A stretch of 63,090 nucleotides of DNA, the filler included, from Hausera hauseri (Eukaryota): NCBI GenBank assembly GCA_046269625.1. It is 11 parts of 11 records of this genome, joined end to end, with 100 filler letters (N's around TTAATTAATTAA, not from the genome) between each part and the next. Parts side by side here need not be neighbours in the genome. Positions count along the whole stretch, not along the records: positions 58,473 to 63,090 come from JBJURY010501908.1; 10 more parts are not named here. The stretch is one strand, 5' to 3'. The position numbers were made by a program, and so were the translations under genes. Of the stretch, positions 16,206-63,090 are shown piece after piece (within the stretch, counting starts at the first letter, position 1; the number at the start of each line of letters is the position of its first letter). The notes beneath the pieces were generated by a model, which searched no databases, was not told where the DNA came from, and saw only the letters and a program-made list of their open reading frames with translations.

Positions 16206-18399
16206 NNNNNNNNNNNNNNNNNNNNNNNNNNNNNNNNNNNNNNNNNNNNTTAATTAATTAANNNNNNNNNNNNNNNNNNNNNNNNNNNNNNNNNNNNNNN
16301 NNNNNAAATGCCCAAAATAGAAATCAAAGAAATGATAGAAATTTTAGTAATAACCGTAATACATTCAGCTCATATAATAAATTAGGTTATAATCCTGATA
16401 GAAACCAAGGTAGTTACTGAACCTATGTTAAATGTACGGATAATCGGAGTAATGATAATAGATATGATGCAGATAATAGACAAATGTTACAGGGCCAGAA
16501 TAAAAATACAAACAGAGCGAAATCGCCTGTAAATGAGTATGGCAGACAAAGGATTCGTCGGAATGGAAATTTAATGTTTTACATGTGGCAAAGAAGGACA
16601 TATCGCTAGGTCATGCACAAATCCTAGAAGTGTCACATTTACTAAACCGAACAAGACAAGTATGATTAAAAATAATTTAAAAGCCATTTATGGTAAACAA
16701 GGCGATATAAGCCTGATCATTGAAATGCAAGATCTACGTAGATCTGTAAGAAATCTAGGCGAAACTACAAATCCTCAAGTAATGAAGGCTAGAAACGAAT
16801 ATGAAAAGAAATTACGACTAATGGAAGTCTATCATGGTTTAAGAGAACCACAAACCGAAGAAGAATGGGTATTGGCTCCAAATAATACTAATATGGCGCG
16901 TAAGAAATCTATTCCGCGAGGAATAGCCCAATCGGAGGAACCATCGACATCCCAAAATGTAGACTTAAACGCGGAAATAGAAGTAGTAACACATAATCTA
17001 GATGAAACAACGGATGAATTCGAAAGTGAAATTATTGGACCCTTAGTCCTTAAAATAACGAAGAATAGATGTAGAAGCCCATCAGCTAAGAGAATATCTA
17101 AGAACCGCTCACGGTCTCCTATAAGAAAAGATTTATATCCTGCTGTGCTAAGAGATGATTCGCCCTTGGATACTTCCAGCATGCAAATAGGGATTCCAGA
17201 AATCTTGGAGACACCAGAGATAATAAATATTAATGACGAAATTAATGAAATCTGTCCGCTTCCCGCTAGTGAGGAAGAAACGGACGATAATAATGATCCT
17301 GATACAAAAAATGGAAAGTTCGACGTTAATGGAAGAATGCCGATGACTTAAAGAAGATGAGAATTAGGTGTCACAGTCCAGAAATACTCCGACACAATTT
17401 AGAGAGGCTTAAACAGATCAGTAAACAAACAGACATATCTGGTAAGGAACAACAATTTGCGGAGAAATTATACAAGAGTTTAAAATTATGCAGTGAAGGG
17501 AAACCCGATGAAGCAAATGAAGTAAGACAACCGGATACGTTGATAAAATGGAACCACGAATTAGAATCGTGGATTAAAAGTGGAGTTAAATTTTCGGAAG
17601 GATGGAATAAAGACGAAGTTAATATCGGAGCAAAAGTCGCTGAAGCGCAAACACTACTATCTACTCTAGAAGCTAATCCCAAGTTGAAGATAATAGCCCG
17701 TAACTTAGAACGTAAAATGGATGAAATGCGTTCTGCAATGATTAATCGGCGTAGAGAAACACCGGTTAGTGATCGACGTAATATCGATTTAGAAATATTG
17801 GGTGTAGACCCGATATACATTCCTCCTTTAATGGAGGTGATAAAAATCGCCTTTGTCGAAAACAGACGATGTGCGGACTTAGAGAACCGCATCAAAATTG
17901 AGGATGAAAAAAGATCACAGATCAGCAGTGCAAGAAATCGAATTATGTTTATAAGCAACGAAGAAACTCAATACGTAATAAAAGCTTGTATCGTAGAACT
18001 GGACGAATATAAGGACGAGTTTAGTTATGATAGTCTAATTATGAATTTCCTAAGAGGGCCGGACGATGAGTTAAAAGATACGTATAAGATGTTAGGTAAG
18101 GCTATAATGGCGAAACCAGTAATCGCAAAACAATTGTCGGAATGACCCGAATTAGTAAACCGACTAAGTAAATTAGTAGAAGACCGCAAAAAAGAATTTC
18201 TCTAAAGCGAGCCAATGGTAAAGAAGCAGCTAGGACAAAGTGCACATGATCTAGCCACAATAAGAATAGAAATAGACATTCGTACTCAATTCGAAGCGCT
18301 AAGACGACTAAAATTTATGAAAAAGAAACAAGAAGCGTCCATATGGGAGGAAATATACAAATTAATCGAAGAGACGAACTTTACGGAACAGCCGAATAC

Positions 18400-18565
18400 G
18401 ATTAATGATGTAAACGCAAAGTTAAGAATTGTCCGACTAGAATGCGTCCAACACTTAACGGATAAACCTATCGACTAGATCTCTGCCCAAGACATTGAAA
18501 TCTTAGACATATGTCCGGGACATCGAAATACGTTAACAGACGCAATAAAATTCTTGCATAAACTA
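18400..18565 (+). pseudogene. SAM-like domain within the accessory polyprotein
   Basis: DVNAKLRIVRL...ID*ISAQDIEILDICPGHRNTLTDAIKFL resembles the SAM pattern DL.ELGI...GHR.KIL.AI..L. Confidence 0.5.
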
Positions 18566-19398
18566 CAAGAATGGATGACCGGATAAGACCAGAATTTCCA
18601 TACCAAGTTGACAAAAATAAGAGATAACCCACATTTTAGCTTTCAGGAACACAAGTTCGTAAAAAAATTGTCGGATGCAATGGACCCCGACTCAAAAGTC
18701 ATAAATGAGATGTACGAGTTTGCCTATCTATTGGTAGAAATGGCAGAGATTAGTGATGAGAAGATGAGGCAATTAATGCCCAAAATACAGAAAGTAGAAG
18801 AAACATGTATTAAAACAAAAGAAATAACAGCGAGACTAGATGAACTAACAAAAGAGTTTGAAGACTACCGAAATAAATACGCTTTTACGGAATCAGAAAT
18901 TAAAAATAAGCTAGAAATTGTACAGAGATGGCAAAGAGATGTAATTATTGAACTAACCGACCATTACCAAAAGGGATTTATCAATGATAACGAGTTAAGC
19001 GAATTATTGAAAATGATTCAATATGCCTGTGAAAACGGAATAGGATTCCGAACTATGCAGATGAAAGAAATACAACCAAAATAGAAAGAAATTTGAGAAA
19101 ATGTACAAAGAACGAACATAGCTCTGGTAGACTATGGACTTCCAGATATGAGAAATTAACCAGAATGGGATGTGTACTTAGAAGAAATAACGGTCGGAAA
19201 TCCGGTAACTCCAATACACCTAGAGGAAATAGAAATGTATCAGCAGAACAGGAAATACAATCTAGAGATGCTCCTGGACTCAGAATTAACCGAGAAGGAC
19301 CTGGTGGAATCAACTAACGTGAATATGACTGAAAATAAGCTCAGGCAACTTATTCCGACCTTGACTAAACTATCTAGCGAAAAACGATTTACAGCACG

Positions 19399-19893
19399 GT
19401 GCCGAAACTTCTGATAAAAAGATATGCAGACATTTTGAAGACTAAACCCGAGGTAATGATGAAAATAATGATATTATCCGAGTTGATGGAAGAAAAAGAA
19501 TGTGAATTTATTACACATTTCTATGTAAAAGACGTAAGAGAATGGTTACTGAACAATGGCGGAACAAATGAATTAAAACACAGATTTTACTTTAGAGGAA
19601 GAATACTTGGCGATTTAGAACAGTTAGTAGATATCGGAATCATTCCCGACGAAACAAATCGAATAATAGTAATAATAGCCAATGAACAGACGAAAGAAGA
19701 AGCCACACGGAAGGCTAAAACGGAACAATGTGTAGGACAAATCTTGGGAGTACGAGACCCTGCAATGTATTTCGAGTATTTACAAACAGATGAAGACAAA
19801 GAGCAATATGACAAGAATCTAGTACCGTTAAGTGGAATGCCAACGAATGCTCCAAAACCGAAACGCCCAGTAGGCAGACCCAGGAAGCCTTGA
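19399..19893 (+). CDS. Polyprotein fragment: ubiquitin-like domain + AT-hook
   Basis: HRFYFRGRILGDLEQLVDIGI resembles ubiquitin [20 protein letters not shown]; C-terminal KRPVGRPRK. Confidence 0.65.
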   Translation: MPKLLIKRYADILKTKPEVMMKIMILSELMEEKECEFITHFYVKDVREWLLNNGGTNELKHRFYFRGRILGDLEQLVDIGIIPDETNRIIVIIANEQTKEEATRKAKTEQCVGQILGVRDPAMYFEYLQTDEDKEQYDKNLVPLSGMPTNAPKPKRPVGRPRKP

Positions 19894-20389
19894 GAAGAAA
19901 TTGACTATAATGGAGAACTGATTAGAGGATTAAGACAAATGTCGATTCCTACTTTCAGTACAGATAATGAAGAATTAAGCGAGTTAATGAAAAATTTAAT
20001 ACGTATCGTAAATTATTCGAGTCTCCGCGGAGATACATTAGACGAGAAAGAAAAGTCAATATTTAACGCAGCTAGAACAATGAGAAGTTCGCGTTTCAAA
20101 CTGTCAAAAGTAGCCTAACTGACGACGTAATAGTCGAGAAGATCACGGTGGAGAATACGATAGAAAAGCTGAGAAAAGTGTTATTGTACTTGGCAATTAA
20201 GACAAATCCTAATCGAGAAAATGAACTAAATCGAGCTACGAGTTTGGCACAAAAAGGTCTAGAAAACTCCCGTGTGAAGTAAATTGGCCAAAATTGTTTG
20301 ACAAGGAAGAAGAAAAAAGAAATAACAACAGACTCGAAGACGTCATACGGAACTTGACGACAACGGATAATAACAACCGAAAGAATGAA

Positions 20390-20736
20390 TCTAATTGGTT
20401 AGTCAGTTTGCTCACCATAATGATGTTAATAAAACAAATTGGTGCTGTTACCGTCCACGATTGTGATTGATTTAAGCTTGGACAGAAATACTCACTGATG
20501 GACTTAGAAGCATGTGAAGATGCCAGACCACATAAATTGGAAACAAAAGAAAAGAACTATTTTCTATACCAACAACAAGAATTGATACCTCTGGATGGCA
20601 TGGAATGTATGCTGAGACGATCTCGTAGTATTTTTCATTGTGGACTAATGCACGGACACTCCTCAATAATTAAACCAACAACTCCCCCAATTCCCATGAA
20701 TTTGGAAAGGCAACATTGTAAACAAGCCCGAGAAAC
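20390..20736 (+). pseudogene. env: Signal peptide and N-terminus of chuvirus-type glycoprotein
   Basis: WLVSLLTIMMLIKQIGAVTVHDCD...YSLMDLEACEDARP...LYQQQE...IFHCG. Confidence 0.75.
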
Positions 20737-32118: not shown

Positions 32119-33174
32119 ATGCCGTACAATAGGAAATACAGTGATATTTACCTCAAGACGCACGTGCTACTGCTGACAGATGTCTTTAAAAGTTTCAGGG
32201 TTGTAACAGTGAAGAATCATGAATTAAATCAGGCTCATTTTTTTACGGCTCCAGGAATGAGTTGGGCAGCAATGTTGAAATATACCGGCATAAGGCTTCA
32301 GATCATAAAGGATTATTATATGCTCCTTATGATCGAGAGAGGCATAAGAGGTGGAATATGTCAGGCCATTCACCGGTATACCGAGGTCAACAACAATTAT
32401 GTGGCCCAGTATGATCCATCCAAGGAATTCTCATATACATCATACCTGGATGCCAACAACTTGTATGGATGGACAATGAGTGTCCCATTGCCATATGATA
32501 ACTTCAAATGGGTGAAGAAACCTGAAAACTTCTGTATTTCGAATCTGGATCGCATTGGAGATACGAGAAAGTATACTGGAGGTAGATGTATCCGGCTTCT
32601 ATCCACGCAAGGCATCAACGGCTGTCTTTCCTCCCTGAGAGCAGGTTTCCACCCCATGGATAGCAAAGAAAGCTGCTCTGCCATCTGGGTAATAAGAAAG
32701 GTATTTAGTTAACTACATCAATCTCCAGCAGGCAGTTAGACATGAACTTCGTATTACTAAGATCCATAGAGCCCTGCAGTTCAGCCAGTTTATGTGGCTG
32801 CAGTCATACATAGATCTCAATACGAAGCTGCGCACTAAGGCCAAGAAAGACTTTGCGAAAGATCAATTCAAACTATATAATAACTGTTTTTTGGCAAGAC
32901 CATGGAGAATATCCGCAACAGGATCAAAATTGAGCTAGTATGTGACTGGAAGCGGGCAAAGAAGCTAATTGCCAAGCCTAACTTCCATAGCAGCACCATA
33001 TATGCTGAGAACTTGGTAGGCATCAATACTCTGAAAACAACATTGGTATTCAAAAAACCCATATGTGTTGGTATGGCAATATTGGATCTGTCAAAGACCC
33101 TAATGTACAGATTACATTACGATGTAATAGTTCCCAAGTTCAAGTCCATACAGCTGTTTAGTTCTATGCATTAA
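32119..33174 (+). pseudogene. polB: Protein-primed polB fragment, paralog of 220-1705
   Basis: YLKTHVLLLTDVF, IRGGICQAIHRY, YLDANNLYGWTMS, FFGKTMENIRNR, VGMAILDLSK. Confidence 0.9.
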
Positions 33175-44710: not shown

Positions 44711-47700
44711 TACGTTATCATTCCTAAGTCTGTGGGTAGTACAGCGTTTCTACCATACATCATAATAATGGAGTAAATCCTGTTGCAGGATGTGGTGTTG
44801 TGTTTATGGCAAACTGCGTACCCTCTAAGAATTCATCCCAATCCTTCTGATCCTTCGCAACTACTGTCGATAAGATTTGTATATCTGTCGCGTTCATTCG
44901 TTCGACCATCCCGTTACATTATGGATGGTAAGCCGTTGTGGTTAACCGTTCAATTTCAAATACATTGGTAATGTCAAATAGTTCACTCGTAAAGTTCCTT
45001 CCTCGGTCTGTCAGAATTTGTTCGGGAGGTCCGTATCTGCAGATGATTTTCCTTACTACAGTTTCTGCCAGAGTCTCAGCTTTTTGGTCTACTAATGCTA
45101 TTAGTTCGACAAAATGAGTTAATCTATTTATACATGTCAGAATGTACTTATTATTCTTATGAGTTGTAGATAACGATCCTACAATATCCATGGACATCGC
45201 TTGCATTGATCTGTCCGACACATTTATTGGTTTAAGTTCGGAAATGTAGTTTTTCATTTTTTTCTGTTTGGTTGCGCATACTTCGCAAGCGCTTACCCAA
45301 TTCTTTACATCGGCCATTAGTATTCCCGTGCGTAATCTTTTCGGTATGACTACCAACTTCCGTCCTCTTCGCTCATAATATAGTACATTTTCACGGCTCG
45401 CGTCTCCTGTTATAGAGTATTCGTGACCATATTTTTGCAAATGTTTCCGTAATTGGTGTCCTTTTGGTGTTATATCTTGTTCGACGGACTCAATGATTTG
45501 TTGTATAACCTTGTCCTTCCTTTACTCAACAGAGATTTCAATCGCTTTATCCATTGCTAGAGCTCGTTGTCTGTCCACCAGTTCTTCAAGCTGGGCTTTT
45601 CTCATTACAGTAATTGCGCTTGTTTTAGTCTTAAGCCTTGATAGTGCATCTGCATCGACATGTTTGCTTCAGGGTTTGTATTGAAATTCGATGTTATACC
45701 GTGAGATCTCTTCGATCCACCGATTGAGTCTACATGTTGGGTTATTCGCTCTACCTTTCAAAGTGGTAATCACTTTGTTATCCGTAACAATTATAATTTT
45801 CTGTCCGTAGACGTTTACGTTAAAGTGTCGTAGAGCGTCTTTTACAACTAACGTTTCTAGTTCCGTGACCGAGTAATTCTTTTCGGCCTTCTTTAATGAC
45901 CTTAATGTGATTGGATGTTCTAGTTCTTCATCGTCTCGTTTCTGAGCTAACTCATACCCAATGCCTTCTTTGCTGGCATCTGTTTTAATTATAAACGGTA
46001 GGTTAAAATCTGGATATCTTAAAACAGGTTCGCTAGTTATGATTTTCTTCATTTCGTCGAAAGCTCTTTGTTCGACGTCCGCCCATTTCCATTTGATTCC
46101 CTTTTTAAGTAATCCATAAAGGTGCATTTATTTTTGAATTACCTGGTACATAAGTGGCGCAGTACCCACATAAACCTAACCAATACCTCAGCTCTTTTTG
46201 GTTCTGGGGTTCCATACAATCTGATATCTTAGCAATGATTTATCTGGTTTCAATCCCCTTTCTCCAACTATATGTCCGAGATAAGATACAGCGTTTTCAG
46301 CCCATTTACATTTCTTCGGATTCAATTCCAGTCCTGTTTGCTCCACCCTCATGAGCGTACCCTCAATATCCTTTATATGTCCTTCTGTTTTCGATGCAAC
46401 CAATACGTCATCCAGGTAGGCAAACGGGTGTTCCAGTCCCATTAGCATCTTGTTCATCATTCGCGTAAAGATGGCTGGTCCGCTAGTTTTCCCGAATGGC
46501 ATGACATTGAATTTGTATAGTCCATCATGTGTTTTTAACGCAGTTTTGTAACGATCTTCCTCTTATATTACTACCTACCAATATCTGGATTGTAAATCGA
46601 GCGTGGTAAACCTTTCGGCTCCGAAAAGTCTATCTAGGGCTTCTTTTACCGATGGCAGTGGGAAAGAATCCTTCATCATAAGTGTATTTAATGCTCGATA
46701 GTTAATACAAAATCGATGTTTGGTAGTACCTTTCTTCTTACCCGTGAGTATATGTAAGTACCAAGATCTATAACTTGGTTTAATTATATCGGCCTTTAAC
46801 ATTCATTCAACTTCCTTTGTTATCTCAGGCCTTAATGAGTGCGGGGGAGGATACCATTTTGGCATCTTCTGATCTTCTAAGTCTATTTCGTCATTGGAGC
46901 CTAGCTTTTTCTTAAGTGGAGATGTTAGTCTCAAAGTTTTTGCTCTGCCTATGTCTTCTTCGTCTTTCGCAATGACCGAGCTATAATGACAAAGTAACTC
47001 GTAAAATGGACAGTATTCTTCTGGTGAAAATTTAGTTTCTACGTGCGGTGGAAATTTGGCACACTTGTACGGTTTTTCTTCAACGGTTATTGACGATACT
47101 CTATATATGTGACACAGGGTGGTATTCTCATACAATTTGATCGGTATTGGTGCATTATTGGCTATTCTAATGGATATACGGCCCGTGGATACCCTTGTTA
47201 ATACGTTACTGTGCACGATGTTTGGGTCTAATGATTCATTTGGTTCAGAATACATTGGCTGATCGTCGTCTTGACGAATCTTGGCATATATTATTACCTC
47301 GGTCCTTGGTGGAATGTTCTCGTCTACTGGGATCCATACTTCCCCTAATTGCCTATCTTTGGTGGTTTTGACTCCTTTTATCGGGCCGAGCACTATTAAT
47401 CTCCCGGCATAGAAGTATATCGCCATATTGGTTAATTGTCTCAACAGATCACATCCTAAGACTATATCATCTGTTAACTGCTCCACTACTGAAAATTTGT
47501 GATAAAATGATTGTCCCATTATGTGGATTTCTGGATTCCATCGGAATTTGCTTTTCGATGACTGTCCGAAAGCTCCAATACTCCCTGGATCTGTTGTCGG
47601 AGGTGGGTATAGTTGTTTCCTTAGAAATTGCAGTATCCAATCATGCTTAATCGGTAATATCTCGGATCCCGTGTCTATTAGTGCATAGAATTCTCAATCT

Positions 47701-47720
47701 TCCAACTGAATTTTTGTGAA
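44711..47720 (-). pseudogene. pol: pol: protease, RT, RNase H, integrase (frameshifted)
   Basis: FYALIDTGSE (~47661-47690), IVLGCDLL, RFCINYRALN, AYLDD, IIKTDAS, MSMDIVG, ILTDRG. Confidence 0.93.
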
Positions 47721-48419
47721 GGGTCTACCTTCGATTACCTTACCATAGTGATTTGGTGCTATTTTTGGACGCTGAATCTCTGAAACCTTATAACCATTAA
47801 TTCTAACTTCAGTAGTTGTGTCTGGCTGGTCGATCATCTGTCTTAGCTCTGCGTTCGGGTACAGTTCATTGTTCGTGCGATTAACGTCTCCTGTTTCCTG
47901 ACATCCAATTGGCGGCTGTATTTCCCGGTTTCCTAAATTCCACACCTCGTGGTCTCCAAAATGTTGATCGGAATTCATTGAGCCTGGGTATTCTAGGTGA
48001 ATAAATTATTCCCTGGTCGTCGACCGCTGAACGATGGTATGGAACAGATATTCTCTTTGTTTCGCGCACTTTACACAATATACCGTAGTGTTTCGTTCCC
48101 TCATTTGGATCTTCCAGACTGAGCGGCTTCCTATAGATATCCGTTTGATATGAGCTCATAGACTGTTTCGCACAGTCTTCATATGTAGGTGCATTTGGGG
48201 GTAATATCGGCAAGGGTGATTTTATAACGGAATAGTTTTTGTTTCTATTTGTTCTCGTAACGGCGTTTCATCCTTTAGGCTCGTCATCGTCAGAATTATC
48301 TCTTTGTGCCTTGGCATTTAAGAATTTACGTCTTTAACTAAATATGTGTCTCCTTTTACGTTTTCGATTATGATAGCCGACATGTCGCTCCACATCTGCT
48401 TTCCACCTACTTTCTTCGT

Positions 48420-50225
48420 AAGCATTTAAAAATTTGCCGAAGGGTGGGATAATAGCCGTTAAAATTTTGCATGAGAACCATGTCAAGGTGAATATCTCAT
48501 ATCCATTTATAATTTTTTGAATTATCGCTTTAACCAGTTGAATTAAGAAATAGATTGCTAAGAATCCGGATGCCGCTTGTCCGAATATCAGAAATCTTCC
48601 TCAAATTTTATACAATATTTCCGTAGTTACTTTTTCATAGTAGTTAATACCAAACAATGATTCCCATTTTTCTTGATAACGTGAATCCTCTAGTATCGTG
48701 TGCATCGCTCTGTTTAATTCATACGTACGTTGGCGTGGGAAAGCAAGAAATTGTCTAAATGCCTCTACTTCCTTTGGCCGATAAATACATTTTGCTGCAG
48801 TGTCTTGAAACTTATCATCGGTTATCCCTTTTATTAGATTTGTTCCTGTTAACTTGGTGGGCGGCGTAATTATTCCACCATTCGGTAAACTTACCCAATC
48901 GAATACGCTGCGTTTAAACATTGGTTCTCCCAAACTGGTCTTACAATCTTTCAGAATTGTTGGTTGGGTAGAATTCGCCAGCAATACTCTCGTAATGGGC
49001 GTCACTAATCTTGGCATATCCCGATATATTACTGGAAGTTCTTGAATGTGCCTTTTTTCTTCCACATTAATAGGTACATCCTTCTTTTCGCACTCGTAGA
49101 TCAGCAGAACTTCTCCGGTCACTCGTCCAAAAACACTTTCTTTCATCGGAATTATTGGTAACTCTAACTCGGGGTTGGCATTTAATAAGACTAGTTTGGT
49201 TCTCATTATTTTTAAGTCTCGTTTGCAGTCGTTTGTTATCATCTTGTGGTATAACTCAGTTTTTCCGGCCTGTCCCTTGTAGTAGAAATAGTCATCTCTA
49301 TTTTTCAAATAATCTTCAATTCGAATATCTTGAGTCTCAAGTTTGAACGTCTTGGTATTTATCTCGGTCTCAGCTATAAAGAACGCTTCATAATTAGTGG
49401 CATACATTACTACATCACATCTGGTGAGGACATCTTTCTTCACAAACTTTAACCCATGAGGATCGGAAATTAGTATGGTAGGTGTAGGCTGTTCCGCTAC
49501 ATTTTCTCCTGTTTTCGAGTTAGTATCTATGCTACTTATATAACGTCTCCCTGTCGTTTCATTGAACTTAAGTTCCTTAATACTAATAAAGTTGCAGTTA
49601 CATTTGGCTCGGAGTTCCCAGATTACTACCGAACTTCTAAAAACACAGGTGCCGTCTTGGATGTGGCACTTTTGGTTTTCCGTATAGAGCTTGGTGACAC
49701 TATGAAACATTACCTTTTGTATGCGCATCTCGGTTTCGTAGAAATCCATAACCACTATGTTTGATTCCAATCCTTTTCCAGTATCATATTCTGCACCGTT
49801 GCAGTGACCTGTATGCATATCTAATCTTCATGCTGCTTCTTTGTACTCTCTGATTACCTTCCTTTGCTGCATTTCTAATTCCATGCCGTCCCATTTCAGC
49901 CTGCCTGTTTCTCTAGCCTGCTTACAATGTTGGCGTTCCAAGCTCATTGGAATTAGTGCTGTCGTCGGTTTGATTATTGATGAATGTCCGTGTATTAATC
50001 CACAATGGAAAATACTGCGAGATCGTCACAACATGCATTCTAGTTGCTGATACAGTACATATTTTTTTCTTTTCTTTCTAATTTATGTGGTCTCGCATCT
50101 TCGTACATTTCCAAATCCATCAATGAATATTTCTGGCCAAGTCTGAATTTTTCGCAGTCATATATGATAACTGCTCCCATTTGCCTTATTAACATCATCA
50201 CAGTCAGGAAATTAATTAGCCAGTT
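48420..50225 (-). pseudogene. env: Chuvirus-type (class III-like) glycoprotein with signal peptide and C-terminal TM
   Basis: IIYDCE..YSLMDLE, IFHCG, GEVLLIYEC, ELPV, PITRVL; after a TGA (probably from TGG) FGQAASGFLAIYFLIQLVKAIIQKIINGY TM region. Confidence 0.82.
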
Positions 50226-53200
50226 TGATTCGTTTCTCCCATTATTTCCGGTTAAGTTTTGTAACATATCTTCGAATCCACAATTATTACTAACGAATGG
50301 TCCATTTTGGCGTCCTTCGTCCTTTTCGAATAGTTTGGACCAATCTACTCCTCGGGGCAGTTTTCTACCGGCCTTTCGTGCTAGACAAGTGGCTTCATTA
50401 AATTCATTTTCTCGGGCTGGATTCGTTCTAATGGCCAAATATAATAATACTTTCCGCAGTTTTTCTACGGTTTGCTCTACCGTAATTTTCTCAATCACCA
50501 ATTCATCGTTTAAGGTGCTTCTCAATCATTTGTTGCAGAAATTCTTCATTGTTCTGGCTGCATTCAATATAGATTTCTCTTTTTCGTCTAGTATATCGCC
50601 ACAGAGACTAGAGTGGTTTACTATGCCTATTAGATTCTTTATAAGTTCATTTAACTCTTCATTTTCCGTGTTGAAGGTTGGTATGGACATTTGCCTTAAT
50701 TCTCCAATTAAATATCCATTGTAGTCAATTTCTTTCCGCATTTTCCGCGGCCTACCAAGAGAACGCTTAAGTTTCACTATTACCGATGCGATTTCACTAG
50801 GTGGTACTAAATTCTTATCATACTGTTCCTTATCTTCATCGGTTTGTAAGTATTCGAAATACATTGCTGCGTCTCGAACGCCGATGATCCGTTCCACACA
50901 TTGATCAGTTTTGGATTTTCTGCTGGCTTTTTCTTTTGTTTCTTCCGCACAAGCGTTACTATTATCCGATTTGTTTCACTGGAATAATTCCGACGTTTAT
51001 TAATTGCTCCAGTTTGTCTAATATCCTACCTCTAAAGTAAAGTCTATAATTTAGTTCGCTTGCACAACCATTACTTATTAGCCACTCTATCACGTCTCCT
51101 ACGGAGGAGTGCGTAGTGAATTCACGCTCTTTCTCGTCCATCCAATCCGACGATATCCTTACTTTAATCGGCTCCTCGTTTTTAGCCCTTAAGATTTCCG
51201 CATACTCCTTTATCAAAAGTTTTGGCACGGCACTATAAGTTGTACCTTCACTAGATAATTTAGTCAGGGTAGGAACTAGCTGTCTAAACTGATTTTCGGT
51301 GAGGTTTACATTAATTAACTTAATTAAATCTTTCTCTGATTGTGCCGAGTCAAGAAGCATTTCCATACTGAATCTTCGATCCGACGGACATATCTCCCTT
51401 TCGTACAATCGTACGGGAGTTTTCGGGTTTTCATCAACCATTGCGTCTAAATGTGCATCTCATTCTGGTTCGTTTTCGTTGCCCGGCGGTCGATAATCAG
51501 TGGTCGGTGCCTCTACTGGTTTGGCCACATCTGCAACTGGTATTGACCCTCTTAGTTCGCGTAACTTCTGTTGCATTTTAATCATTTGCGTCGTCCGGAA
51601 GCAATGTCCATTACCAGAAGTTTGCCGTAAAGATGTTAACAGCTGGTATAATTCTTCGGCTGAAATCAGTCCTTTTTCTTGTTAACTTGTTAGTTCAGAG
51701 GCTACGTTTCTATGCTATCTTTGTACAAACTGCGACTTGTCGACTTTCACCGCTTCTGTGAGAGCGTGTTTATTTCTATTGATCTCGAGCTCGTTTAGTA
51801 ATACGTTTAGCTTATGGCTCTCTGCTTGGTTTTAATGAAAGTTTCTTCGACTTGGCGTATCTGGGGCAACAATTTTTTTATCTTCTCACCGTTAATTTCC
51901 GCCATTTCCACCATTAGGTGTGCTAAGTCATACATTTCATTAATAATTTTTGAGTCCGGATCCATCGCATCCGATAATTTCCTTAGAAATCTGACTTCTT
52001 CGACGCTGAGATGGTGGTCATTTCTGATCCTTATAAGTTCGGTATGACATCTCTGGTCCGTTCCAATCATCTATTTTTGTGAGTCGTGTAAAAATTTTAT
52101 CGCCTCTTCTATCGCTGATCGGTGCTCCGGGCAAACGTCCAACGTCTCTAGATCTTGAATCGAGATTTCTTTGATATGTTTTGTTGTAAAGTACTGAATT
52201 CCTTCCAGGCAGACGTTTCTTAGCCTCGGATAGAAGCTACAAGTCATTCCGCTTCTGTGTAAAGTTTGTTTTTTCGATCATTTTGTATATATCTTCCAAT
52301 ATCGTCGTCTCTTGTTTTCTTTTCATAAACTTCAATTGACATAATGCATTAAATTGTTTCCTAATATCCACTTCCGCCCTCATTGTATCCAGATTGCGTA
52401 CATCTTCTAATTGTTTATTTACTGTAGGCTCACTTTTAGGGAACTCTTTTATGCGATCTTCTACTAATTTACTCAGTCTAGTTATTACTCGAGACCATTC
52501 GTCTAGCTGGTTAGAGATATTTGGCTTCGCTAACACTGCTTTGTCCAGCATTTTGCATGCGTCTTCTAACTCGTCGTCTGGGCCTCTGATGAAACTAATA
52601 ATCCGGTATGCATAGTTGAATTCATCCTTATATTCATCAACTTTAAGGATGCAGGCTTAAATTATGTCCTGTGTCTCATCGTTGTCCAATTGCATGATCC
52701 GATTTTTCTCAAACTATATATCTGCGACTTTTTTTCGTTTTCGATTTTGATACGATTTTCCAGACTTGTATATTGTTTTGATTCGGTGGACGCAATTTTT
52801 ATCATGTCCATTAATTGTGGGATATCTGGCGAGCATATACCCAACAATTCCAGGTCAATTGAGTTCCGTTCCCTGACTGCATTTTCTTTGAGCCTCCTAA
52901 CCATTTCGAATCTGATTTCATCTATGACACGCCCCAGGTTACGTGTTACTCTTTTTAGTTTTGGATTGGCTTCCAATGTAATTAATAATGCTTGGGCGTT
53001 TTTTAGTCTTGCTTCGACATTCTCTGTACGTTTATCCCACGCTTCGTGAGGTTTTACTCCACTTTTTGTCCATGCTTCTAATTCGTATTTCCATTTTGCT
53101 AACGTTTCTGGGGGCACTTCCTCAGATTTCCCTAGATCTATAGCTTCGCCCAGTTTTCCTTCACTATATAGTTTCATTTTCTTGTATAATCTTCCTATAA

Positions 53201-53983: not shown

Positions 53984-55161
53984 CTATTCATAATCCCACT
54001 TTAATCCAGCATTTATATCTCTTAGATATTGTGATCTTTGACTTTCGGATATTATTCTGCTTATTTTTACATTTTCTCCGGTCATGGCCTCTACCATTAA
54101 CTTAAAACGGCCTTCCATAGTCAGTGGTATATGGCTCCTTTTTTCTTCCATCTTATTTTCCACTTGTCTCATAATAGTCGGGTGAGTTTCTATTTCCCTT
54201 ACTCCGGCTATATATGTTATCGTTATGGCCAATTTCCTCATTATCCTCTCTATTCGATACCCCACTAAGACGTATACATAGAGGCATTGCGTTACTTTTT
54301 TTGTACTAATTTAAAATCCCTTCCATGATTTAGATACTCTCTTTTAATTCCAGTAATTTCTGCATGCGTTTCAAACACTTTTTGTCTTGGATTGATGATC
54401 TTTGAATAGACTTTAGTCCCGTTCTCTTCTCGGATGGATATCTCGATGGCAAGGTAATTTCCTTCTTCTCCTTCCCCATAATTTATCGCGGCAATTCTAA
54501 GATTTCTCTCGTTAGCTAGCAATCTATAGGACTGTAGGTGTGTGCCCTGTTCTTCTTTTGTATGTCTTTGTCTAAATTCCAAAGGTGGTAGCGGTATACA
54601 TATTTCTTCTTCTGTTGTTTCTATCATTATTTTTACTGGTAAGGCGGCTACGCGAAATTCCAATTCGTGATTTTTGAGGCTCCTACTGTTGAATATAAAG
54701 ATACTAAACCGACTTTGTCTTCCTTGGAAGGAATCCCATTTCTGATCCTTTAGTCGATAGTATATTTCCCCGTCTGCCAAGTGCACATAAATCTCCTGTT
54801 CCTTATCTGGTTGGTACTGAGCGATTGGTCTAAAGGGGTATGCTCTAGCATCTTTGTCCTCCCTCCATGCGTATAAATATACGGCTCTGGCCTCCTCGGT
54901 CGTTCCTTTCAAACCATTTGGGATATCACCAACTCTTCCGTATTGAACAAAATTTTTTCCTTGCAATTCGGCGTTGATTTGCCTGTAGATGGCTTTTGAA
55001 TTCGGAATCCGCACTGTTACGTATTGTTGTAAAAATACGTCAATATTAAGTAGACTTGTGGCGTTTTCGGCGTCGATTCTAATTCGGCTCGAAATGTCTT
55101 CTGCGTCGATCCTAAGTCGGCTTAATTCCATCTGGATTCGGTTACTTACCAATCTGAACAA
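53984..55161 (-). pseudogene. Accessory ORF with C-terminal pseudo-DEDDh exonuclease (REX4/ISG20-like)
   Basis: RIAAINYGEG...LAIEISIREENGTKVYSKIINP...EITGI...DFKLVQKK, then (frameshift in an A-run) VTQCL...LVGYRI. Confidence 0.65.
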
Positions 55162-55251
55162 AAGAACATAAAGGTTAATCTTAAAACAAAGGATGGTTTT
55201 AAACCAAAACCAATTCTTTGTTTGATGACAGAATAACCTGATCTGTAATTG

Positions 55252-56660
55252 TCAAGTTATTTTATTATATGGGTCTACAGGGTTCTCCAATTCCCTTAGT
55301 TCCCATTCTGAATTTTTATGACGCTTAGAACCACAGTTTTTGATGACTAGTCGAAAAATTGCAATTAATATAATGAGAACAAACGCTGACAGTACGGAGA
55401 TGGATATAATTAGTAGTGTAGTTAATCCCATCGGGGCTTGTGTGGCGACCGGAGTTGTGATCTGCTCATCTATATCCTCGTACGTATGTGAGGCTGCACG
55501 AATCTCATCTAAAGTTTGCAATGTAACGGTCTGATTTTGCTTATTCTCTGCACATACTTGTACTATATATCTGGTTTGTGGTTTTAATAAATTGCACTCT
55601 GTTTGATAAATATTTTTAAATAGCGTCACAACTTGATTATTATACGTTGTCCGACAATTTATGTACATGTTGTAGTTTTGTTTTTCTTCCACGAAGAACA
55701 CAATTTTAGACCGATATACCGAATATTTAATAGGAATGTTTCCTAATTCTCTTTTCGGCACACTGGCCTACGTAACGGTTGTCGTAATGGTACTAACTTG
55801 AGTTACCGGTCTTCTGGTGGTTGTCTCTACCGAAATTTTCCAAATTTTATTTTCTGGATAGTAAGTTCGAAGTTGTACACTTGGTTTATTAGGCCGTACT
55901 TCATGTAAGTCAAATATTATCTTGAATTCTTGGTTTACGGGTATTTTACAGCATGGGTTTTGCACATCTGCTCGAATAGAACAATATTCTATTTTCGGGG
56001 TCGGTCCATCTGTGGCTTTAAACGTAATACTATTTTCCTGACTAAAGGTTACTCCTGTTCTAGCGCCTACTTGAATGCATTGTTCGTCCTTATTCACAGA
56101 GATTCTCTGTATATTTTCGTCTAATATTCTTATATCTGGGTCAGTGGATCATAATATTTCATTAAGTTTTACTTCATGATGTCTATTCCATTTGGGAACG
56201 CCTAACTGAAATGGTGGTTTTACTTCAGTATAAAGTTTGGTTGAGTCTAGTAGGTACAAGCCATAGGTGAGGTTATAAGTATGTCCAAAATCTATGTTGC
56301 AACACTGTGTATTTTCTCCAGCTCAAAATCACAATTTTTCGCTTCCTTTTTTGTTACATCATGTAAACCAACCTGAAATTTTCCGAAATTATGGTGTGAC
56401 CTCCAAGCATTAAATCCAACGCATACGGCGTTTGGCGAGTAATAGTGAACTGTCATCGATTGTGACAATTTGGTATCTTCTTGTTTTTGAATTTCTTCGA
56501 CTGTTGGTTTCTTTTCCGATTTAACTGTTTCCGATTTTGATCCACTCTTCCGAATTCCGTATATATCTCCTAACGTAGATTCATCGTGCCACCATAGCGC
56601 TTGTATTCTTGGGATGTAGAAGGCAATCAACGATAATGCTAAGACTATTTGAACATATGA
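55252..56660 (-). pseudogene. Type I membrane protein with FN3-like domain(s)
   Basis: Signal VQIVLALSLIAFYIPRIQA; LKPQTRYIVQVCAEN (FN3 tyrosine-corner motif); Thr-rich linkers; TM LLIISISVLSAFVLIILIAIFRLVI. Confidence 0.7.
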
Positions 56661-56689
56661 TATTGGTCTAGTAACTGTCGATGAAGTTT

Positions 56690-58372
56690 TCGCCTCGCGT
56701 TGGCGTAAATTATAACGTTTGTTGGGTTGTATTTCTGTCTTTACAACTCTTTGTACTGATATGACTTCTTCCTTTCCATTTTTGTTAATATGTGCTGTAG
56801 TTGGCGTAATCTTTGTAACTTCGTACGGTCCTCTACCCGTACGAGTTAATTTTAGTGAGGTGCCTTTTTTGGCTACTGGATAATGTACATAAATCCAATT
56901 TCTTTGTTCTATATCATGGGGTTTCGCTTTCTTATTATATTGCTTCTTAAACTGTTCTTGATATTCTTGGAATAGTTCTTTTGGCGATTTCCCAACACTT
57001 TTGCAACGGTGTTTGTAATACTTCTGCGAAATTCTGTTCTAAATCTTCGGATTTAACTGTGTATGGCGTCATTGCTAAGTCCGTGGGCAACATGACTTCA
57101 CGCCCATAAATCATAAAAAATGGCGTAAATCTTGTTGCTGGATGTGGCGTGGTATTAATTGCAAATTGCCTTTCTTCCAAAAATTCGTCCCAATTTTTTT
57201 AATCTTTCGCTACTACTGTTGATAATATACGTATGACGGTAGCATTCATCCGTTCGACCATTCCATTACACTGAGAGTGATATGCAGTAGTTGCTAATCT
57301 ATCGATTTCAAATATTTTGGTGATTTTCTGAAAGAATTCGCTGGTAAAATTTTTTCCTCCATCTGTGAGTATCTGGTCTGGGGACCCGTATCGACAAATA
57401 ATTCTCCTTACAGAGGCTTCTGCCAGGGTTTCGGCCCTTTGATCAACCAATGCTATCATTTCGACAAAGTGAGTTAATCGATCAATACAAGTTAAGAAAT
57501 ACTTATTGTTCTTGTGCGTCGTAGGTAGAGGTCCCACGATATCCATCGACATGGCTTGAATGGACCTATCGGGCACATTGATTGGTTTTAATTCCGCCAT
57601 GTAATTTTTCGTTTTCTTTTGTTTAGTTGCATATACTTCGCACGCGCTTATCCAATTTCTTACATCGATATAGATCCACGGCCAAAAATATTTATTCATT
57701 ATTCTTTCTAAGGTTTTCTTCCAGGAGATATGTCCGGCTAAGTATGAATCGTGTTCTGACATCAGTATTTCGGTTCGTAAGCTTTTTGGAATAACTATCA
57801 ACTTCGTTCCTGTTCTTTTGTAATATAAAATGTCTCCTTCGTTCACGTCATTTAAGACGCAGTATTTATGTCCATATCTGTTTAAATGTTTCTTTAACTG
57901 TCGTCCTTTTGGCATAACATCCTTTTTAGCAAATTCTATAATATGCTGGATAACTTTATCCTTTTTCTGTTCTGTTGAAATTTTGATCGCCTTATCTATT
58001 GTTAACGCGCGTTGGCGGTCTGTTATTTCCTCAAGTTGGCCTTTCTTCAACACAGTGATTGCGCTTGTCTTAGTCTTTAATCTCGATAGTGCACCAGCGT
58101 CTACATGTTTATTTCCTGCCTTATACTGGAATTCGATATTGTATCTGGAGATTTCTTCGATCCATCTGTTTATTCTGCATGTCGGGTTATTTGATCGGCC
58201 TTTTAAGGTCGTAACGGCTTTATGATCAGTGACGATTATAATTTTCTGCCCGTAAACATAAACATTAAAATGATGCAGTGCTTCTTTCACAGCTACAGTC
58301 TTTAGCTCGGTAACGGAAGAGTTTTTCTCAGCTTTTTTCAAAGAACGTCCTCCATAAGCGATCGGATGTTCC
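56690..58372 (-). pseudogene. pol: RNase H - integrase of giant element, copy C
   Basis: VTDHKA, H...GH...C..., MDIVGPLP, ILTDGG, NGMVER, GPYEV, RYNLR; closely similar to 44711-45900. Confidence 0.93.
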
Positions 58373-58472: not shown

Positions 58473-60860
58473 AGGTACACGGAAAAAATTATTCAGGATG
58501 ATAAGGAAATATTTGAATTTTGGGAACATGAAGAAAAGGAGTTTATAAATAAATATGACTATAGTCCACAAGGCGCTAGTTGTAGAAGTAAGTATTGCCA
58601 AGGTGAAAACAAATTAGATGATGACCTAAACGTTGCCGAAATAAATTTGACCGAAGTGTCAAAAATAAAGAGCGTTGAGCGTTTGTTAAAACAAAAAATT
58701 ACTTACATTGTAGACGATTTAAATGAAGACTATTTAAGGACACCAACTCCCGGTTCTAGTAATAGAAGCGATGAAGATGTGTTTGTTGAACCCTATTTAA
58801 AGACGGTAATATTGAATAATGAGTATAATGTTGAAAGTCCTTTGAGAGATATAGAATCTAATGCGGATTCGGATGTAGTAACGAATGAAGAACCGGCTTT
58901 TTGGAATTGTAGTAAATTTAGTAAAACAATGAATTGCAATGAATTAAGAGTAGAATTGAGCGTTGAAGCTCTTGACAATTTAGATATACCTCGAAAGGTT
59001 GAGAAGACTAAGGTTTAAAATATAAAAATGAGTAATGAACTGGAAATTTTGAATCAGAAAAAGATTGGGAATGCATGTTTAGAAACTAATGACATAAATG
59101 AGATAAGTATAAATGGAAAGGCAAGTATGTAATATGTTTTGAAAATAAAGTTTTCTGAAAAGGCAAAAGAAATAAATGTTGATCGTTTAAACATTTTGAG
59201 AGAAAATGATGATAAAGTGGATATAACTGAAAATTTGAATTTAACGATTGGAAGAGAAAACGAAGACGATTTGGTAGAAATAGAAGATGAAATGAAAAAT
59301 GATTTTCGGAACAGACTGGAAAGACTGAGATGCCCGGAAGGATTACGGAGAGAAGATATATACTTTCCGAATTATGGAGATGTGAATAACGAATAATTAA
59401 GTATAAATCAGACGAATTTCGAAGAATTTTACAAGGATTCTCTTAAAAAGGATGCTTTGGCATAAGTAAAATGGTGGTAGAAGAGGATGATGAGATAAAA
59501 AGACAACTGAAAATTAGGCGGATAATTGATACTTTTCAAAGGTATAAATGCAGCCACAGCTTTGATAAAATAGTTAAGGCAATAAATGAATTTAGAAAGG
59601 TACCTATAAATGACGAACTCAGTGTATTAAAAGTTAAGCAAATTCGATACTTAAAAGGGCTTAATAATGTTTGTGAAGTAGAAATTGAATGCGTAAAACG
59701 AATGCTTGGTATTTGTAAATTCAATATAAAATTTGAAATGAATGTATCGATGGCGTTATTTATAAAATTACAAGAATTATTACAGAAATTGGACAGTTCG
59801 GTGTATCAAATATTTTTAGGTAATTGGATTCGATCAGAGAAAGAAGAAGAAAATAATGAATATGAGGAGACTGAAAAACAAATTATGTTAAGGAGATACG
59901 GAATAGATGGGTTAATAATAGAAAAACAATTACAATTAAATATAATCCAAGAAACGTTAACTAATCAAGAATTGCAGGAAGATCTGTACCATATGATAAG
60001 TGGAAGTAATGAAAATGTACCTCCGATATTGGTTGAAAGATATGAAAACAGATATTCTGTTGAAAATTATACCAGAAAAATCCAAAATAAAAAGAATTCA
60101 AAATTACCAAAAAAGTTCTGTAGCAAAAAAGAATGCAATGAAACGAATACAAGGAATGTATACATGGTTTACGGGCCAAGGAAAATCATGGTCCGTGACG
60201 ATAACCAAGAAGATAAAGTTATTGTTAATGAAAACTACAATGATGAAAACCGAAAAGAGGAAATGTCACGAATTATGATGTTTGGCCCGGGTGTGGAAAT
60301 TGAAGAGATACAAACGGAAGAAGATCAGTTTGAATATTATTTGGCTGTTATTGAATAACAAGGATAAGGAAGATGTCCATACGCTTGTATTAAATAAAGT
60401 GTACAAAATAAAGAACTGGATAATAGAAATTAAAGAGAGATTTTTAGGAATGCGTAAATTTTTTGTAACACAAGCTGCCGACTACATATTAGAAGCAAGT
60501 ATTCCCAAAGAAATATTAGAATGTTCTGGCCAAAAACAAATGAGAGGTAGAGACTTTGAAGAATGTGAAATAGTAGAGATAAATATTTATGGAGAATATA
60601 GAAATAAAGTCAATGAATTTCGAATTGCTGTAAAGGTTGATGAACCAATGTTTGCGGCTGTTGAAGCAATAAGACTACAATATGATGATGTGAATATTTG
60701 TACTGTTCTAAATTATAAAAAATCATGGATAGAATTAGGAATTATGCATGGGATGGATCCAACTGAAACTGTTGTAGTATATTTAAAAAATTGGACAGAG
60801 AAAATTTAAAGCAAAAAGAGCTAAAACAGCGCATACAGAATGTGTTGGGATCAAATGAGG
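58473..60860 (+). pseudogene. Acidic/helical accessory polyprotein fragments of a divergent giant element, copy D
   Basis: ORFs 58647-59018, 59139-59396, 59471-60358 and 60282-60809 lie on one strand leading into the env ORF; possible Ubl at ~60570-60790. Confidence 0.55.
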
Positions 60861-60889
60861 CTATTTGACAGTTAGATATTAAAGATAAA

Positions 60890-63090
60890 ATGCAGACACC
60901 AGTTCCACAAGAAGGAATGGAAATTGATCAACCAGTTTCTGAACTAGCAGTTCATGAGGAGGGACCGAATGTACAAGGGAGTCAAATTATTAAAGATATT
61001 TTAGAAGTAATAGGGCAATCAAACCTAGCCAATCCAGCTAATGTACAAGATATATTAAATATGCTTCAACCAAAACAAGAAACAACGCAAACCGACAAAC
61101 GACCACAAGGTCGTCCAAGAAAAAACCTCTGGGAGCAAGTTAAAGTTGATACTCTAACTAAAGCATTAAGAAAAAGTGAAATTCGAATAATGGACTTTGA
61201 AACAAGACAAATTAAACCGATTCTATGGAGGATTTATAGCTCTCTATTTGCAGTAGAAAATGATCAATTAATTGATGAGCCACTTACTCTTGATATTGAA
61301 AATCACCTGAAGCGAACGTTGGTTCGATTAGAAGCAGCAGTGAAAAATGAACAATTATCAGAACGAATAGACCCCATAGAAGATGGTGAAATAATACAAA
61401 AATGGATTAAGACGGGAGGTTTAACAAAAGATCGCGTTATCACTATTTTAGTATACTTAGTAATGAGAATTAAAAATTCAGCCAATACAACTGAAGAAAG
61501 AGAGAGTAGCTTTGATACAGCTATAGAAATTTTGAAAACATATCTATCTCCAGATATAGATCGAATTGGAGGATGGAATGATTTGTTGAGTTTGGATAAG
61601 CCTCAAAAGACTGAAAGTAAAATATCAGAACGGGGAAATAGAGCAGATAGTCTCGGGGAACATGAACTTTCTGAACTATTCATTAGGGCACAGAGGCTAT
61701 TTAGTGCTACATTACCTAGACCAGGAAGTAATGATTTAACATGGCTAATTATACTTCTTGTGATCTTGTGTCGAGGAACCAATGGTTTTCGAGCATATGA
61801 TTGTGACTATCCAGCTGTTGGGGCTTCATACTCCCTTGTAGATCTAGAAAAATGTCCAGATGCGGAACCCGATAAACTTATATTTGAAGGTACTAAAAAT
61901 TATAGAATATATCAAGAAAATAGATTTATACGAGTGAAAGCGCTTGAATGTAAGCTAACTAAGCAAATAAAGAAATGGCATTGTGGGAAAATGCATCGAC
62001 ATTCAACAAACATATTAATGGCCACACCAAACGAACCGTATGAATTAACAATGGATCAATGTCGAGACGCGGTGAAAAATGGAAAATTAAAAATAAACAA
62101 CAAAGTTGAAATAGGGGCTGCCGTAAACGCTATAAATTATCATACGATCAACGAAGAAGGCTCTATTACAGCTAACGGAGATTGTTATGGAAACACAGTA
62201 GATGGTGTTGCAAGAGTTGTGGTACAGGCATTATATACATTAACTATTGTTGAAAAGGATATTTCATTTGATATACAATCAAAACAATTAATGGTTAAAA
62301 CAGACTGTAAGTACGGTACTGAATACTGTAGAACTACTGATTCCATTATTACTTGGACTGCACCGGTGGTTGAATGTAATTTAGCCTTTCTAAAAAAGAT
62401 AAAATTTAATGTAACCAGGGGAATACGACTTAGTATACCATTTGCACGACGAAATATTGGAAGTGAAAGTGAGGAAGATAAGTTAGAGCAAATAGATACA
62501 CCAACAATTATGATTTCTACGAAGATCGAAGACTCTATAAGATTCATACGAAAAGAAAAAGTAACTAAATGTGGAGTCGAAGATATCTATGCTACTAATA
62601 TGGAAAATATTTATGTTTCAGAAATAGAAATAGAAAACGCTCAGAAGACTGTACATCCCACAGAAGTAAGACCAATGAGTTATTATAATGGAAAAATAGA
62701 TTATTTATTCCATTATATGGTAAATAACCAATATCAAATTTATAAGGATATGATTCAAAACGATTGTTTACTAGCTCAGGATTTATTAGCATTAAGAGTG
62801 ACCGTAGCCGCCATCAATCCAGCTATAGACACGCCTGTACTACCAACAAAAGTAAAAGGTATGTTTGGACGAGTATCAGGAGAAGCTATGATAACATTTA
62901 AGTGTACGGAAGTAATGGTAAACCTAGTGGACATGAAAGCATGCACAAATGAAATAGCGGTGCAATATAAGGATGAAATAAGATATGTAGCCCCGATCAC
63001 TAGAGTTATGTTACAAAAATATGAAGAACCTACTAAAGTAAGAAATTGTTATAAGGAAGTTGCCCCCTTATATAAAATCCATAAGGATGA
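60890..63090 (+). CDS. env: Open ORF running off the window (absent from the ORF track): AT-hook, Bcl-2-like domain, signal peptide, chuvirus-type glycoprotein
   Basis: Hand translation shows no stop over ~733 codons: RPQGRPRK, GGLTKDRVITILVYL, IDRIGGWNDLL, TWLIILLVILCRGTNG, FRAYDC, YSLVDLEKC, WHCG, GEAMITFKC, YVAPITRV. Confidence 0.85.
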   Translation, partial: MQTPVPQEGMEIDQPVSELAVHEEGPNVQGSQIIKDILEVIGQSNLANPANVQDILNMLQPKQETTQTDKRPQGRPRKNLWEQVKVDTLTKALRKSEIRIMDFETRQIKPILWRIYSSLFAVENDQLIDEPLTLDIENHLKRTLVRLEAAVKNEQLSERIDPIEDGEIIQKWIKTGGLTKDRVITILVYLVMRIKNSANTTEERESSFDTAIEILKTYLSPDIDRIGGWNDLLSLDKPQKTESKISERGNRADSLGEHELSELFIRAQRLFSATLPRPGSNDLTWLIILLVILCRGTNGFRAYDCDYPAVGASYSLVDLEKCPDAEPDKLIFEGTKNYRIYQENRFIRVKALECKLTKQIKKWHCGKMHRHSTNILMATPNEPYELTMDQCRDAVKNGKLKINNKVEIGAAVNAINYHTINEEGSITANGDCYGNTVDGVARVVVQALYTLTIVEKDISFDIQSKQLMVKTDCKYGTEYCRTTDSIITWTAPVVECNLAFLKKIKFNVTRGIRLSIPFARRNIGSESEEDKLEQIDTPTIMISTKIEDSIRFIRKEKVTKCGVEDIYATNMENIYVSEIEIENAQKTVHPTEVRPMSYYNGKIDYLFHYMVNNQYQIYKDMIQNDCLLAQDLLALRVTVAAINPAIDTPVLPTKVKGMFGRVSGEAMITFKCTEVMVNLVDMKACTNEIAVQYKDEIRYVAPITRVMLQKYEEPTKVRNCYKEVAPLYKIHKD

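Follow-up and report, generated by a model that had tools for sequence, protein, structure and literature searches.

We describe an open reading frame (ORF) from Hausera hauseri (GenBank assembly GCA_046269625.1) in which a domain with a predicted Bcl-2 fold is joined in frame to the envelope (env) protein of a Ty3/gypsy retroelement. The DNA analysed, which we call the window, is 63,090 nucleotides long and consists of 11 parts of 11 records, strung together with an artificial spacer (N44, 12 fixed bases, N44) between each part and the next. Almost all of these parts are pieces of transposable elements, and no host genes were recognised among the window ORFs that were scanned. The ORF sits in the last part (58473-63090, from JBJURY010501908.1), a piece of 4.6 kb; the frame is open from 60869, directly behind an in-frame stop at 60866, to the end of the window, and the place that pol would take in this focal copy lies beyond the window. 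The features of the ORF, together with those of two broken related copies elsewhere in the window, are collected in Table 1.

Table 1. Features of the focal frame, of the DNA upstream of it and of the two related copies (positions count along the window; residues along the focal ORF)
Feature	Position	Strand	Basis
Open frame P0001, at least 733 codons: leader, Bcl-2-fold domain, internal signal sequence, gB-type envelope	60890..63088	+	ATG at 60890; runs off window end
AT-hook-like basic motif RPQGRPRK, residues 71-78	61100..61123	+	Motif scan
Bcl-2-fold domain, residues 101-238	61190..61603	+	AlphaFold2 model, Foldseek, VIA-align range, relatives' profile
Predicted helix 1 (BH4 position)	61211..61258	+	Model helix 31-46, inside the stretch that aligns with Bcl-2 structures
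Predicted helix 2 (BH3 position), lacking Gly-Asp	61289..61348	+	Model; sequence LVRLEAAV
BH1 position and central helix 5: TKDR in place of NWGR; Arg182 kept, Asp181 at the Gly position	61424..61480	+	Model, comparison of copies
BH2: GGW kept, first Trp replaced by Asp	61544..61588	+	Aligned with Bcl-xL and BOK BH2
Internal signal sequence, residues 283-299, predicted signal-peptidase cut TNG/FRAYDC after G299	61736..61786	+	Hydrophobicity, (-3,-1) pattern
gB-type (class III) fusion glycoprotein ectodomain, incomplete	61787..63088	+	PF24664, E 1.1e-41
Upstream coding-like DNA in successive frames (ORFs 58473-59018, 59447-60358, 60279-60809)	58473..60868	+	Codon-bias scan
Second copy, broken: ubiquitin-like (Ubl) stretch, GRPRK, helical domain occupying the Bcl-2 slot (50331-50726), signal sequence	50079..51459	-	Slot order; Ubl-like match
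Second copy continued, broken: env, protease, reverse transcriptase, RNase H, integrase (env-before-pol order)	44727..50205	-	Pfam
Third copy, broken: zinc knuckle, Ubl-like stretch, GRPRK (19873), helical domain, signal sequence, env start	16575..20736	+	Slot order, comparison with second copy

The domain ahead of the envelope

The original prediction had placed a Bcl-2-like domain at 61290-61600, fused in frame just upstream of the env signal peptide, on the strength of three peptides resembling Bcl-2 homology (BH) motifs. All three are present at that place in one open frame: LKRTLVRLEAAV at 61307-61342, GGLTKDRVITILVYL at 61415-61459 and LSPDIDRIGGWNDLL at 61544-61588. The proposed place of the domain stands, with its start moved about 100 nucleotides upstream, to about 61190; helix 1 falls outside the span first proposed. 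A further short helix with Leu-Arg (61130-61171, plus strand) lies between the AT-hook-like motif and the domain; it recurs, conserved, in each of the three window copies, and the model did not place it.

The fold was checked by modelling this segment of the ORF. A single-sequence AlphaFold2 model of residues 78-245 has seven helices (mean predicted local distance difference test, pLDDT, 59.5; 70-84 in the core), forming a predicted helical bundle round a central hydrophobic helix that can be superposed on Bcl-2 structures. Bcl-2-family proteins dominate the structural matches. Foldseek against the PDB returned 47 rows, of which 46 are titled as Bcl-2-family proteins and one has its title cut off (best E 0.017, none at E<=0.001). 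When the predicted model was compared with 48,161 solved chains by VIA-align, Bcl-2-fold proteins took ranks 1-28, the best with a Z of 10.7 over 133 residues at a root-mean-square deviation (rmsd) of 4.0 A, and the best chain without a Bcl-2 fold reached a Z of 6.6. The advice for VIA-align is that Z values below about 13 may lack specificity where helical bundles are concerned; the weight here therefore rests on the unanimity of the top ranks. Of the 14 top rows from a viral library, 8 bear the names of Bcl-2, Bak or BALF1 homologues (E>=0.12).

Searches with the sequence of the focal copy gave little. The domain has no Bcl-2 match in Pfam at E<=10 and no match in the PDB by phmmer, and its matches in the ESM Atlas were all below 0.9. 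Word-indexed homologue searches returned no match for the leader or the env, no related loci were found in the metagenome or viral contigs searched, and no Bcl-2 protein was retrieved by a profile limited to the three window copies. When 1.84 billion representatives were searched with phmmer, 487 matched at E<=0.001, and the best 150 of these were examined. Among them, 21 proteins have at least 120 in-frame residues before the env start, and four of the 21 (P0065, P0066, P0073 and P0074) carry a BH2-type motif in this leader. All four match PF00452 (four of the six rows of our alignment A3), with a weak best E of 2.1e-5; P0065 scores 20.1 bits, and the curated Pfam cut-off of 31.4 is reached neither by this protein nor by the focal domain. 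A profile of the four relatives only gives the focal domain 43.8 bits, a score equalled by 0 of 1000 shuffles, and 61304-61591 is its sole match in the six frames of the window. With the six-row profile, 57 of the 60 PDB rows listed are Bcl-2 proteins (best E 0.075, covering helix 6 to BH2 only). Structure and sequence thus agree, through the relatives' profile, their Pfam matches and the fold, and the in-frame fusion of a Bcl-2-like domain upstream of the env signal is confirmed. A BH2-like pattern does recur once by chance in the six frames of the window, in an unrelated ORF; chance resemblance of motifs as the explanation of the focal domain is ruled out by the VIA-align ranks and the relatives' profile.

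The relatives also show what kind of element this is. In P0074 a single frame holds a zinc knuckle, a weak match to ubiquitin, GRPK, the domain, the signal sequence and the env; P0066 has the domain, env and protease in one frame, and other matches join the same env to reverse transcriptase, RNase H as well as integrase. Since relatives link this env to reverse transcriptase and integrase, a viral contaminant in place of a retroelement is ruled out. A search with a neighbouring RNase H-integrase frame found 61 generic gypsy Pol proteins, none of them with env or Bcl-2. One further relative, P0214, is a Burro-sized protein of 4,844 residues in which a single frame joins env, several protease-like domains, a C2H2 finger, ankyrin repeats and pol; a Bcl-2 domain is absent before its env.

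BH motifs, related copies and distribution

The BH3 consensus contains Gly-Asp, which is missing from the helix at the BH3 position. At the BH1 position, where the alignment of motifs rests on helix position, six copies read TKDR (focal), TFTK, TDSK, SRNK, DQNR and TVEK; the glycine is kept in none of the six and Arg or Lys stands at the Arg position in every one. BH2 is better preserved, with GGW in all five domain-bearing proteins. The longer pattern W-x(4)-GGW is complete in P0066, P0073 and P0074, while the focal copy has Asp for the first Trp. Of the likenesses first proposed, then, that of BH2 holds in its GGW, the "BH3-like" helix lacks Gly-Asp and the BH1 lacks Trp-Gly, and the motifs on their own would be weak ground for a Bcl-2 assignment.

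The vaccinia A52/B14/A46 group uses the Bcl-2 fold against innate-immune or stress signalling, not apoptosis. The domain described here could likewise be a scaffold of this type with its BH3 groove closed, a reading that we consider possible but rather doubtful. Loss of the BH1 glycine in all six copies and of the BH3 Gly-Asp is in keeping with it, as are the appearance of A52, B14, N1 and A46 in the VIA-align list (ranks 26, 32, 34 and 38) and the precedent of the feline immunodeficiency virus (FIV) Env signal peptide, an immune antagonist described as acting autonomously on tetherin (PMC10128041). These poxviral proteins reach a Z of just 5.3-6.9, however, compared with 9-10.7 for apoptosis regulators, and the retained BH2 GGW and BH1 basic residue also count against it. 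According to the account in PMC9027176, NWGR lies at the start of helix 5, its Gly and Arg are important for interactions within the family, and the Arg is the residue through which BH3 ligands are characteristically contacted. Several poxviral homologues that have no BH motifs (M11L, F1L, DPV022, ORFV125 and TANV16L) are described as still blocking apoptosis and as binding Bak, Bax or Bim (PMC11209288). Loss of BH motifs therefore weakens the claim that the domain is a canonical member of the family more than the claim that it works like one.

Two more degenerate homologous segments had been proposed at 50330-50560 (minus strand) and 20100-20300. Both exist and occupy the same slot between GRPRK and the signal sequence, but they are candidate Bcl-2 domains by position only. 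The broken copies to which they belong (53.4-44.7 kb, minus; 16.6-20.7 kb, plus) share about 66-69% nucleotide identity with each other and about 28-42% protein identity with the focal env. The Ubl-like stretch of the second copy matches residues 394-522 of P0074 (E 0.001), where that protein has its weak ubiquitin match. Compared with the focal domain without the GRPRK motif, the slots of the broken copies give a Z of 2.6 (38 of 2000 shuffles as high). The relatives' profile scores the 50330 copy at -0.3 bits, with 478 of 1000 shuffles as high, and the model of this second copy (pLDDT 42.6) matched nothing and is too poor to test the fold. The pN/pS ratio (nonsynonymous to synonymous differences per site) of the slot between the two broken copies is 0.19 (95% 0.14-0.27; 128 codons; synonymous sites near saturation), compared with 0.17 for the env start and 0.39 for one gag-region frame. 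Judged from these sequence differences, the slot was under purifying selection between the two copies. Elsewhere in the second copy, between protease and reverse transcriptase, a beta-rich stretch (46803-47393, minus strand) stands where Burro elements have a dUTPase-like domain; it has no Pfam match.

The 2.4 kb upstream of the focal ORF have stops at 59016, 59130, 59394 and 60866 and three frame changes, and no match in Pfam, the PDB, the ESM Atlas or the fetched relatives. One ORF within them (60450-60809) had been guessed by eye to be SUMO-like, for which Pfam, the PDB, the Atlas and the relatives gave no support. If this DNA was once a single frame, seven breaks in 2.4 kb against none in 740 codons has a probability of about 0.01, in a comparison made post hoc; should no more than three of the breaks be genuine, the figure is 0.14. 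Read as separate accessory genes, the same DNA leaves no imbalance to explain. The upstream DNA may be a set of accessory genes, or it may be what decay has left of the first part of a polyprotein.

Another reading is that the domain is a decaying passenger without present function, at least in this copy, perhaps in a dead element of which the 3' part has so far escaped damage. Broken elements abound in the contigs that make up the window, the DNA upstream of the ORF carries the stops and frame changes just listed, and most relatives lack the domain. We nevertheless hold this to be very unlikely, given that the fold and BH2 are kept among copies that are just 12-31% identical, that the pN/pS of the slot is low, and that 740 codons are unbroken. 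It can hold for the focal copy while failing for the family.

The distribution of the domain was also examined on an env tree (FastTree, 35 hand-picked rows). The domain requires five changes on this tree, where shuffled tips give a mean of 5.4, and the well-supported branches force only one, so a single origin is neither shown nor excluded by it. P0065 groups, with moderate support, with four proteins that lack the domain; the GRP motif is still present in at least three of these. Loss of the domain in some lineages is the simplest reading.

The signal sequence and the leader

No other 12-mer in the ORF is as hydrophobic as that formed by residues 283-294 (Kyte-Doolittle 3.13). The small-residue cleavage pattern at (-3,-1) is found in 16 of 17 hand-picked close proteins, which include 11 whose in-frame leaders are long but contain no Bcl-2 domain. 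Because these 11 relatives have the same signal, it is the ordinary internal env signal of the element, and there is no need to regard it as the derived tail anchor of a Bcl-2 protein. BH2 and the signal are 28-60 residues apart, with 54 in the focal copy. With a core of about 12 residues set so far behind BH2, lasting anchorage in a membrane is uncertain.

It had been suggested that the env signal peptide would remain after cleavage as the membrane anchor of the domain. From the topology, the domain is indeed predicted to lie on the cytosolic side after cleavage, tethered by the signal sequence; what falls away is the idea that the anchor is special to the Bcl-2 domain. Long leaders on retroviral envs offer a parallel in layout, and those of FIV and HERV-K are described as working as accessory proteins. 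The FIV Fsp, the human endogenous retrovirus K (HERV-K) signal peptide and the mouse mammary tumour virus (MMTV) p14/Rem signal peptide (PMC10128041, PMC2649029, PMC5371415) are likewise long cytosolic leaders on an env signal that outlive cleavage and may act on the host, as these sources present them. Those envs are of class I and, as far as described there, without a Bcl-2 domain. The envelope of the focal ORF has, by eye, the cysteine pattern of six Schmidtea errantivirus envs (supplement 2 of PMC13524379).

The basic motif ahead of the domain is another constant of the leader. G[RK]P[RK]K occurs exactly three times in the six frames of the window, once per related copy and always ahead of the slot, and a GRP motif is also found in the relatives P0074, P0068, P0071 and P0072. 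The cleaved leader might serve the element itself, either in the nucleus, which it would reach by way of this AT-hook-like motif once released from the membrane, or as a matrix-like link between envelope and capsid, with the Bcl-2 fold as a spacer or adaptor. We think this improbable. It is favoured by the presence of GRP[RK] before the slot in all three window copies and its persistence in relatives without the domain, by the short hydrophobic core, and by the HERV-K Env signal peptide, which is described as being released and going to nucleoli (PMC2649029). That said, relatives manage without the domain, a spacer gives no reason for GGW to be retained in the BH2 of all five domain-bearing proteins, and the Pfam match to AT_hook is weak (E 0.49, on the 50.7 kb copy).

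Related systems, other elements in the window and possible role

The arrangement found here is real, as had been proposed, but it is not new: a BCL2 domain before Env has already been described for the planarian Burro elements as a Ubl-BCL2-Env block, and the focal domain is a new, divergent member. Arkhipova and Yushenova (2019, PMC6431247) described the Burro/GYPSM1 planarian gypsy elements as having Gag, a SUMO-like domain, a BCL2-like motif, env, protease and pol, with an env that resembles mononegavirus fusion glycoproteins and lies in frame between BCL2 and protease. They credit the BCL2-like motif to Grohme 2018 and call the link to apoptosis worthy of experimental confirmation. The focal copy shares with Burro the BCL2-like domain directly before a mononegavirus-like (gB-type) env, in frame. 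[quoted passage not shown] Burro has its env between gag and pol; env and the pol domains follow one another in the second copy, and in one frame in relatives, whereas the focal contig ends in env. The single polyprotein frame Gag-Ubl-BCL2-Env of Burro is matched by the one frame of P0074, whereas the focal frame has an ATG of its own that follows a stop, and the DNA upstream of it matches neither Gag nor Ubl. Burro proper is further marked by a length of over 25-30 kb, long terminal repeats of great length, cargo such as BIR, MATH and ankyrin domains, and a planarian host.

The review of Burro (PMC6431247) gives no fold, state of the BH motifs or topology of the signal sequence. Added here are the fold, a BH1 that has lost the NWGR glycine and kept the basic residue, a BH3 without Gly-Asp, and a signal that is not a borrowed tail. 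In the literature that we searched, neither a test of the BCL2-like domain nor a description of how its signal sequence is oriented in the membrane came up; either may be contained in Grohme 2018 or Lee 2026, or in the supplements to them.

Errantiviruses with the order GAG-ENV-POL and an env of the HSV/gB type (HSV, herpes simplex virus) have been reported from Nematoda, Bryozoa and Platyhelminthes (Chary and Hayashi 2026, PMC13524379). They resemble the present element in the gB-type env, in the order of env before pol and, by eye, in the cysteine pattern of the Schmidtea envs; a difference is that neither "Bcl-2" nor "Bcl2" appears in the main text of that paper. Its intact flatworm elements, in the part of its lists considered here, come from three free-living species only (9 rows), and among 30 of its 55 flatworm genome rows the ENV-POL env matches are mostly from free-living species. 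Compared with the Bcl-2 family itself (PF00452; Bcl-xL, A1/Bfl-1, KsBcl-2, A179L, CNP058, GIV66), the focal domain shares the helical bundle, the BH2 GGW, the BH1 basic residue and a downstream hydrophobic segment. It differs in its low identity (9-20%), in lacking NWGR and the BH3 Gly-Asp, and in having as membrane segment what is predicted to be a cleavable env signal, 54 residues behind BH2, where the family has a C-terminal tail anchor.

The window holds several other elements. On the minus strand at 54292-57038, the integrase C-terminus of a related element is followed by a second hydrophobic segment, also internal, that ends like a signal sequence, and then by broken frames that match fibronectin-III weakly and include a transmembrane segment; downstream of pol, this element apparently has another membrane protein fused to it. 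At 26053-30915 (plus), a 638-codon frame with a signal peptide, an RKKR site and a C-terminal hydrophobic segment has the look of an F-type env, with no Pfam match; it lies upstream of gag-like and protease-like frames, in either an env-gag-pol order or two tandem copies. A RING-H2-like finger (25022-25375, minus; PF13639, E 4.6e-5, below the cut-off) stands at the end of a contig with gypsy pol pieces, and a broken mariner-type transposase was recognised by eye from the translation at 11862-12585 (plus). Finally, pieces of B-type DNA polymerase (PF03175, E 2.7e-7) at 220-2329 (minus) and 32083-33105 (plus), about 71% identical to each other, look like Polinton remnants.

We return to the domain and what it may do. 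In the reading that we prefer, and to which we would give an even chance, the locus is the env region of a Burro-like Ty3/gypsy gag-env-pol element, with an in-frame Bcl-2-fold domain that would be tethered to the endoplasmic reticulum (ER) on its cytosolic side and act as a non-canonical pro-survival decoy. The domain was likely captured from a host. The signal sequence would insert with its N-terminus in the cytosol and be cut after G299. The leader would be free of the upstream part of the element, through its own ATG here or through the element's protease in the polyprotein relatives, and may then stay on the ER at least for a time or be released like other long Env signal peptides. The domain could bind host pro-death Bcl-2 proteins via a remodelled groove, in the manner of the poxviral homologues without BH motifs, and would be unable to donate a BH3 itself.

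Several observations weigh against a pro-survival decoy. The glycine of NWGR is lost in all six copies, with Asp in its place in the focal one. The hydrophobic core of the signal is short and lies 54 residues beyond BH2, and the site expected for the protein is the ER, not mitochondria. The model comes from one sequence, lacks a discrete helix 3, and superposes on its structural matches at an rmsd of 3.5-4.7 A with Z under 13. The domain is also patchy, occurring in four of the 21 long-leader proteins among the best 150 of the 487 matches, and proteins closely related to P0065 have retained the GRP motif and the signal without it, which suggests that it is dispensable in some lineages.

A more specific scenario, which we consider unlikely, is that in a lineage outside planarians the Bcl-2-env block became a separate gene, which stayed open as the DNA upstream of it decayed; its basis is the imbalance of breaks between the upstream DNA and the ORF given above. 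One frame would then yield two products, a fusogen and a Bcl-2-fold accessory protein, either ER-tethered or released, in which the BH3 groove is rebuilt and an AT-hook-like motif is present. If true, this would be the leader of a retroelement Env, or of one domesticated by the host, acting as a regulator of cell death.

Bcl-2 mimics are known from large DNA viruses, and a retrotransposon lineage with one is rare. The finding supplies the limits of the domain (residues 101-238), a predicted cleavage site and five divergent members of the family, and it leads to a specific prediction, that of a remodelled BH1 in a protein that is not a BH3 donor. Burro1 is reported to protect planarian stem cells from apoptosis through its RING-BIR (inhibitor of apoptosis, IAP) region (Lee 2026, as cited in PMC13465017). 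Whether the same elements carry a second survival module, of the Bcl-2 type, therefore becomes a testable question.

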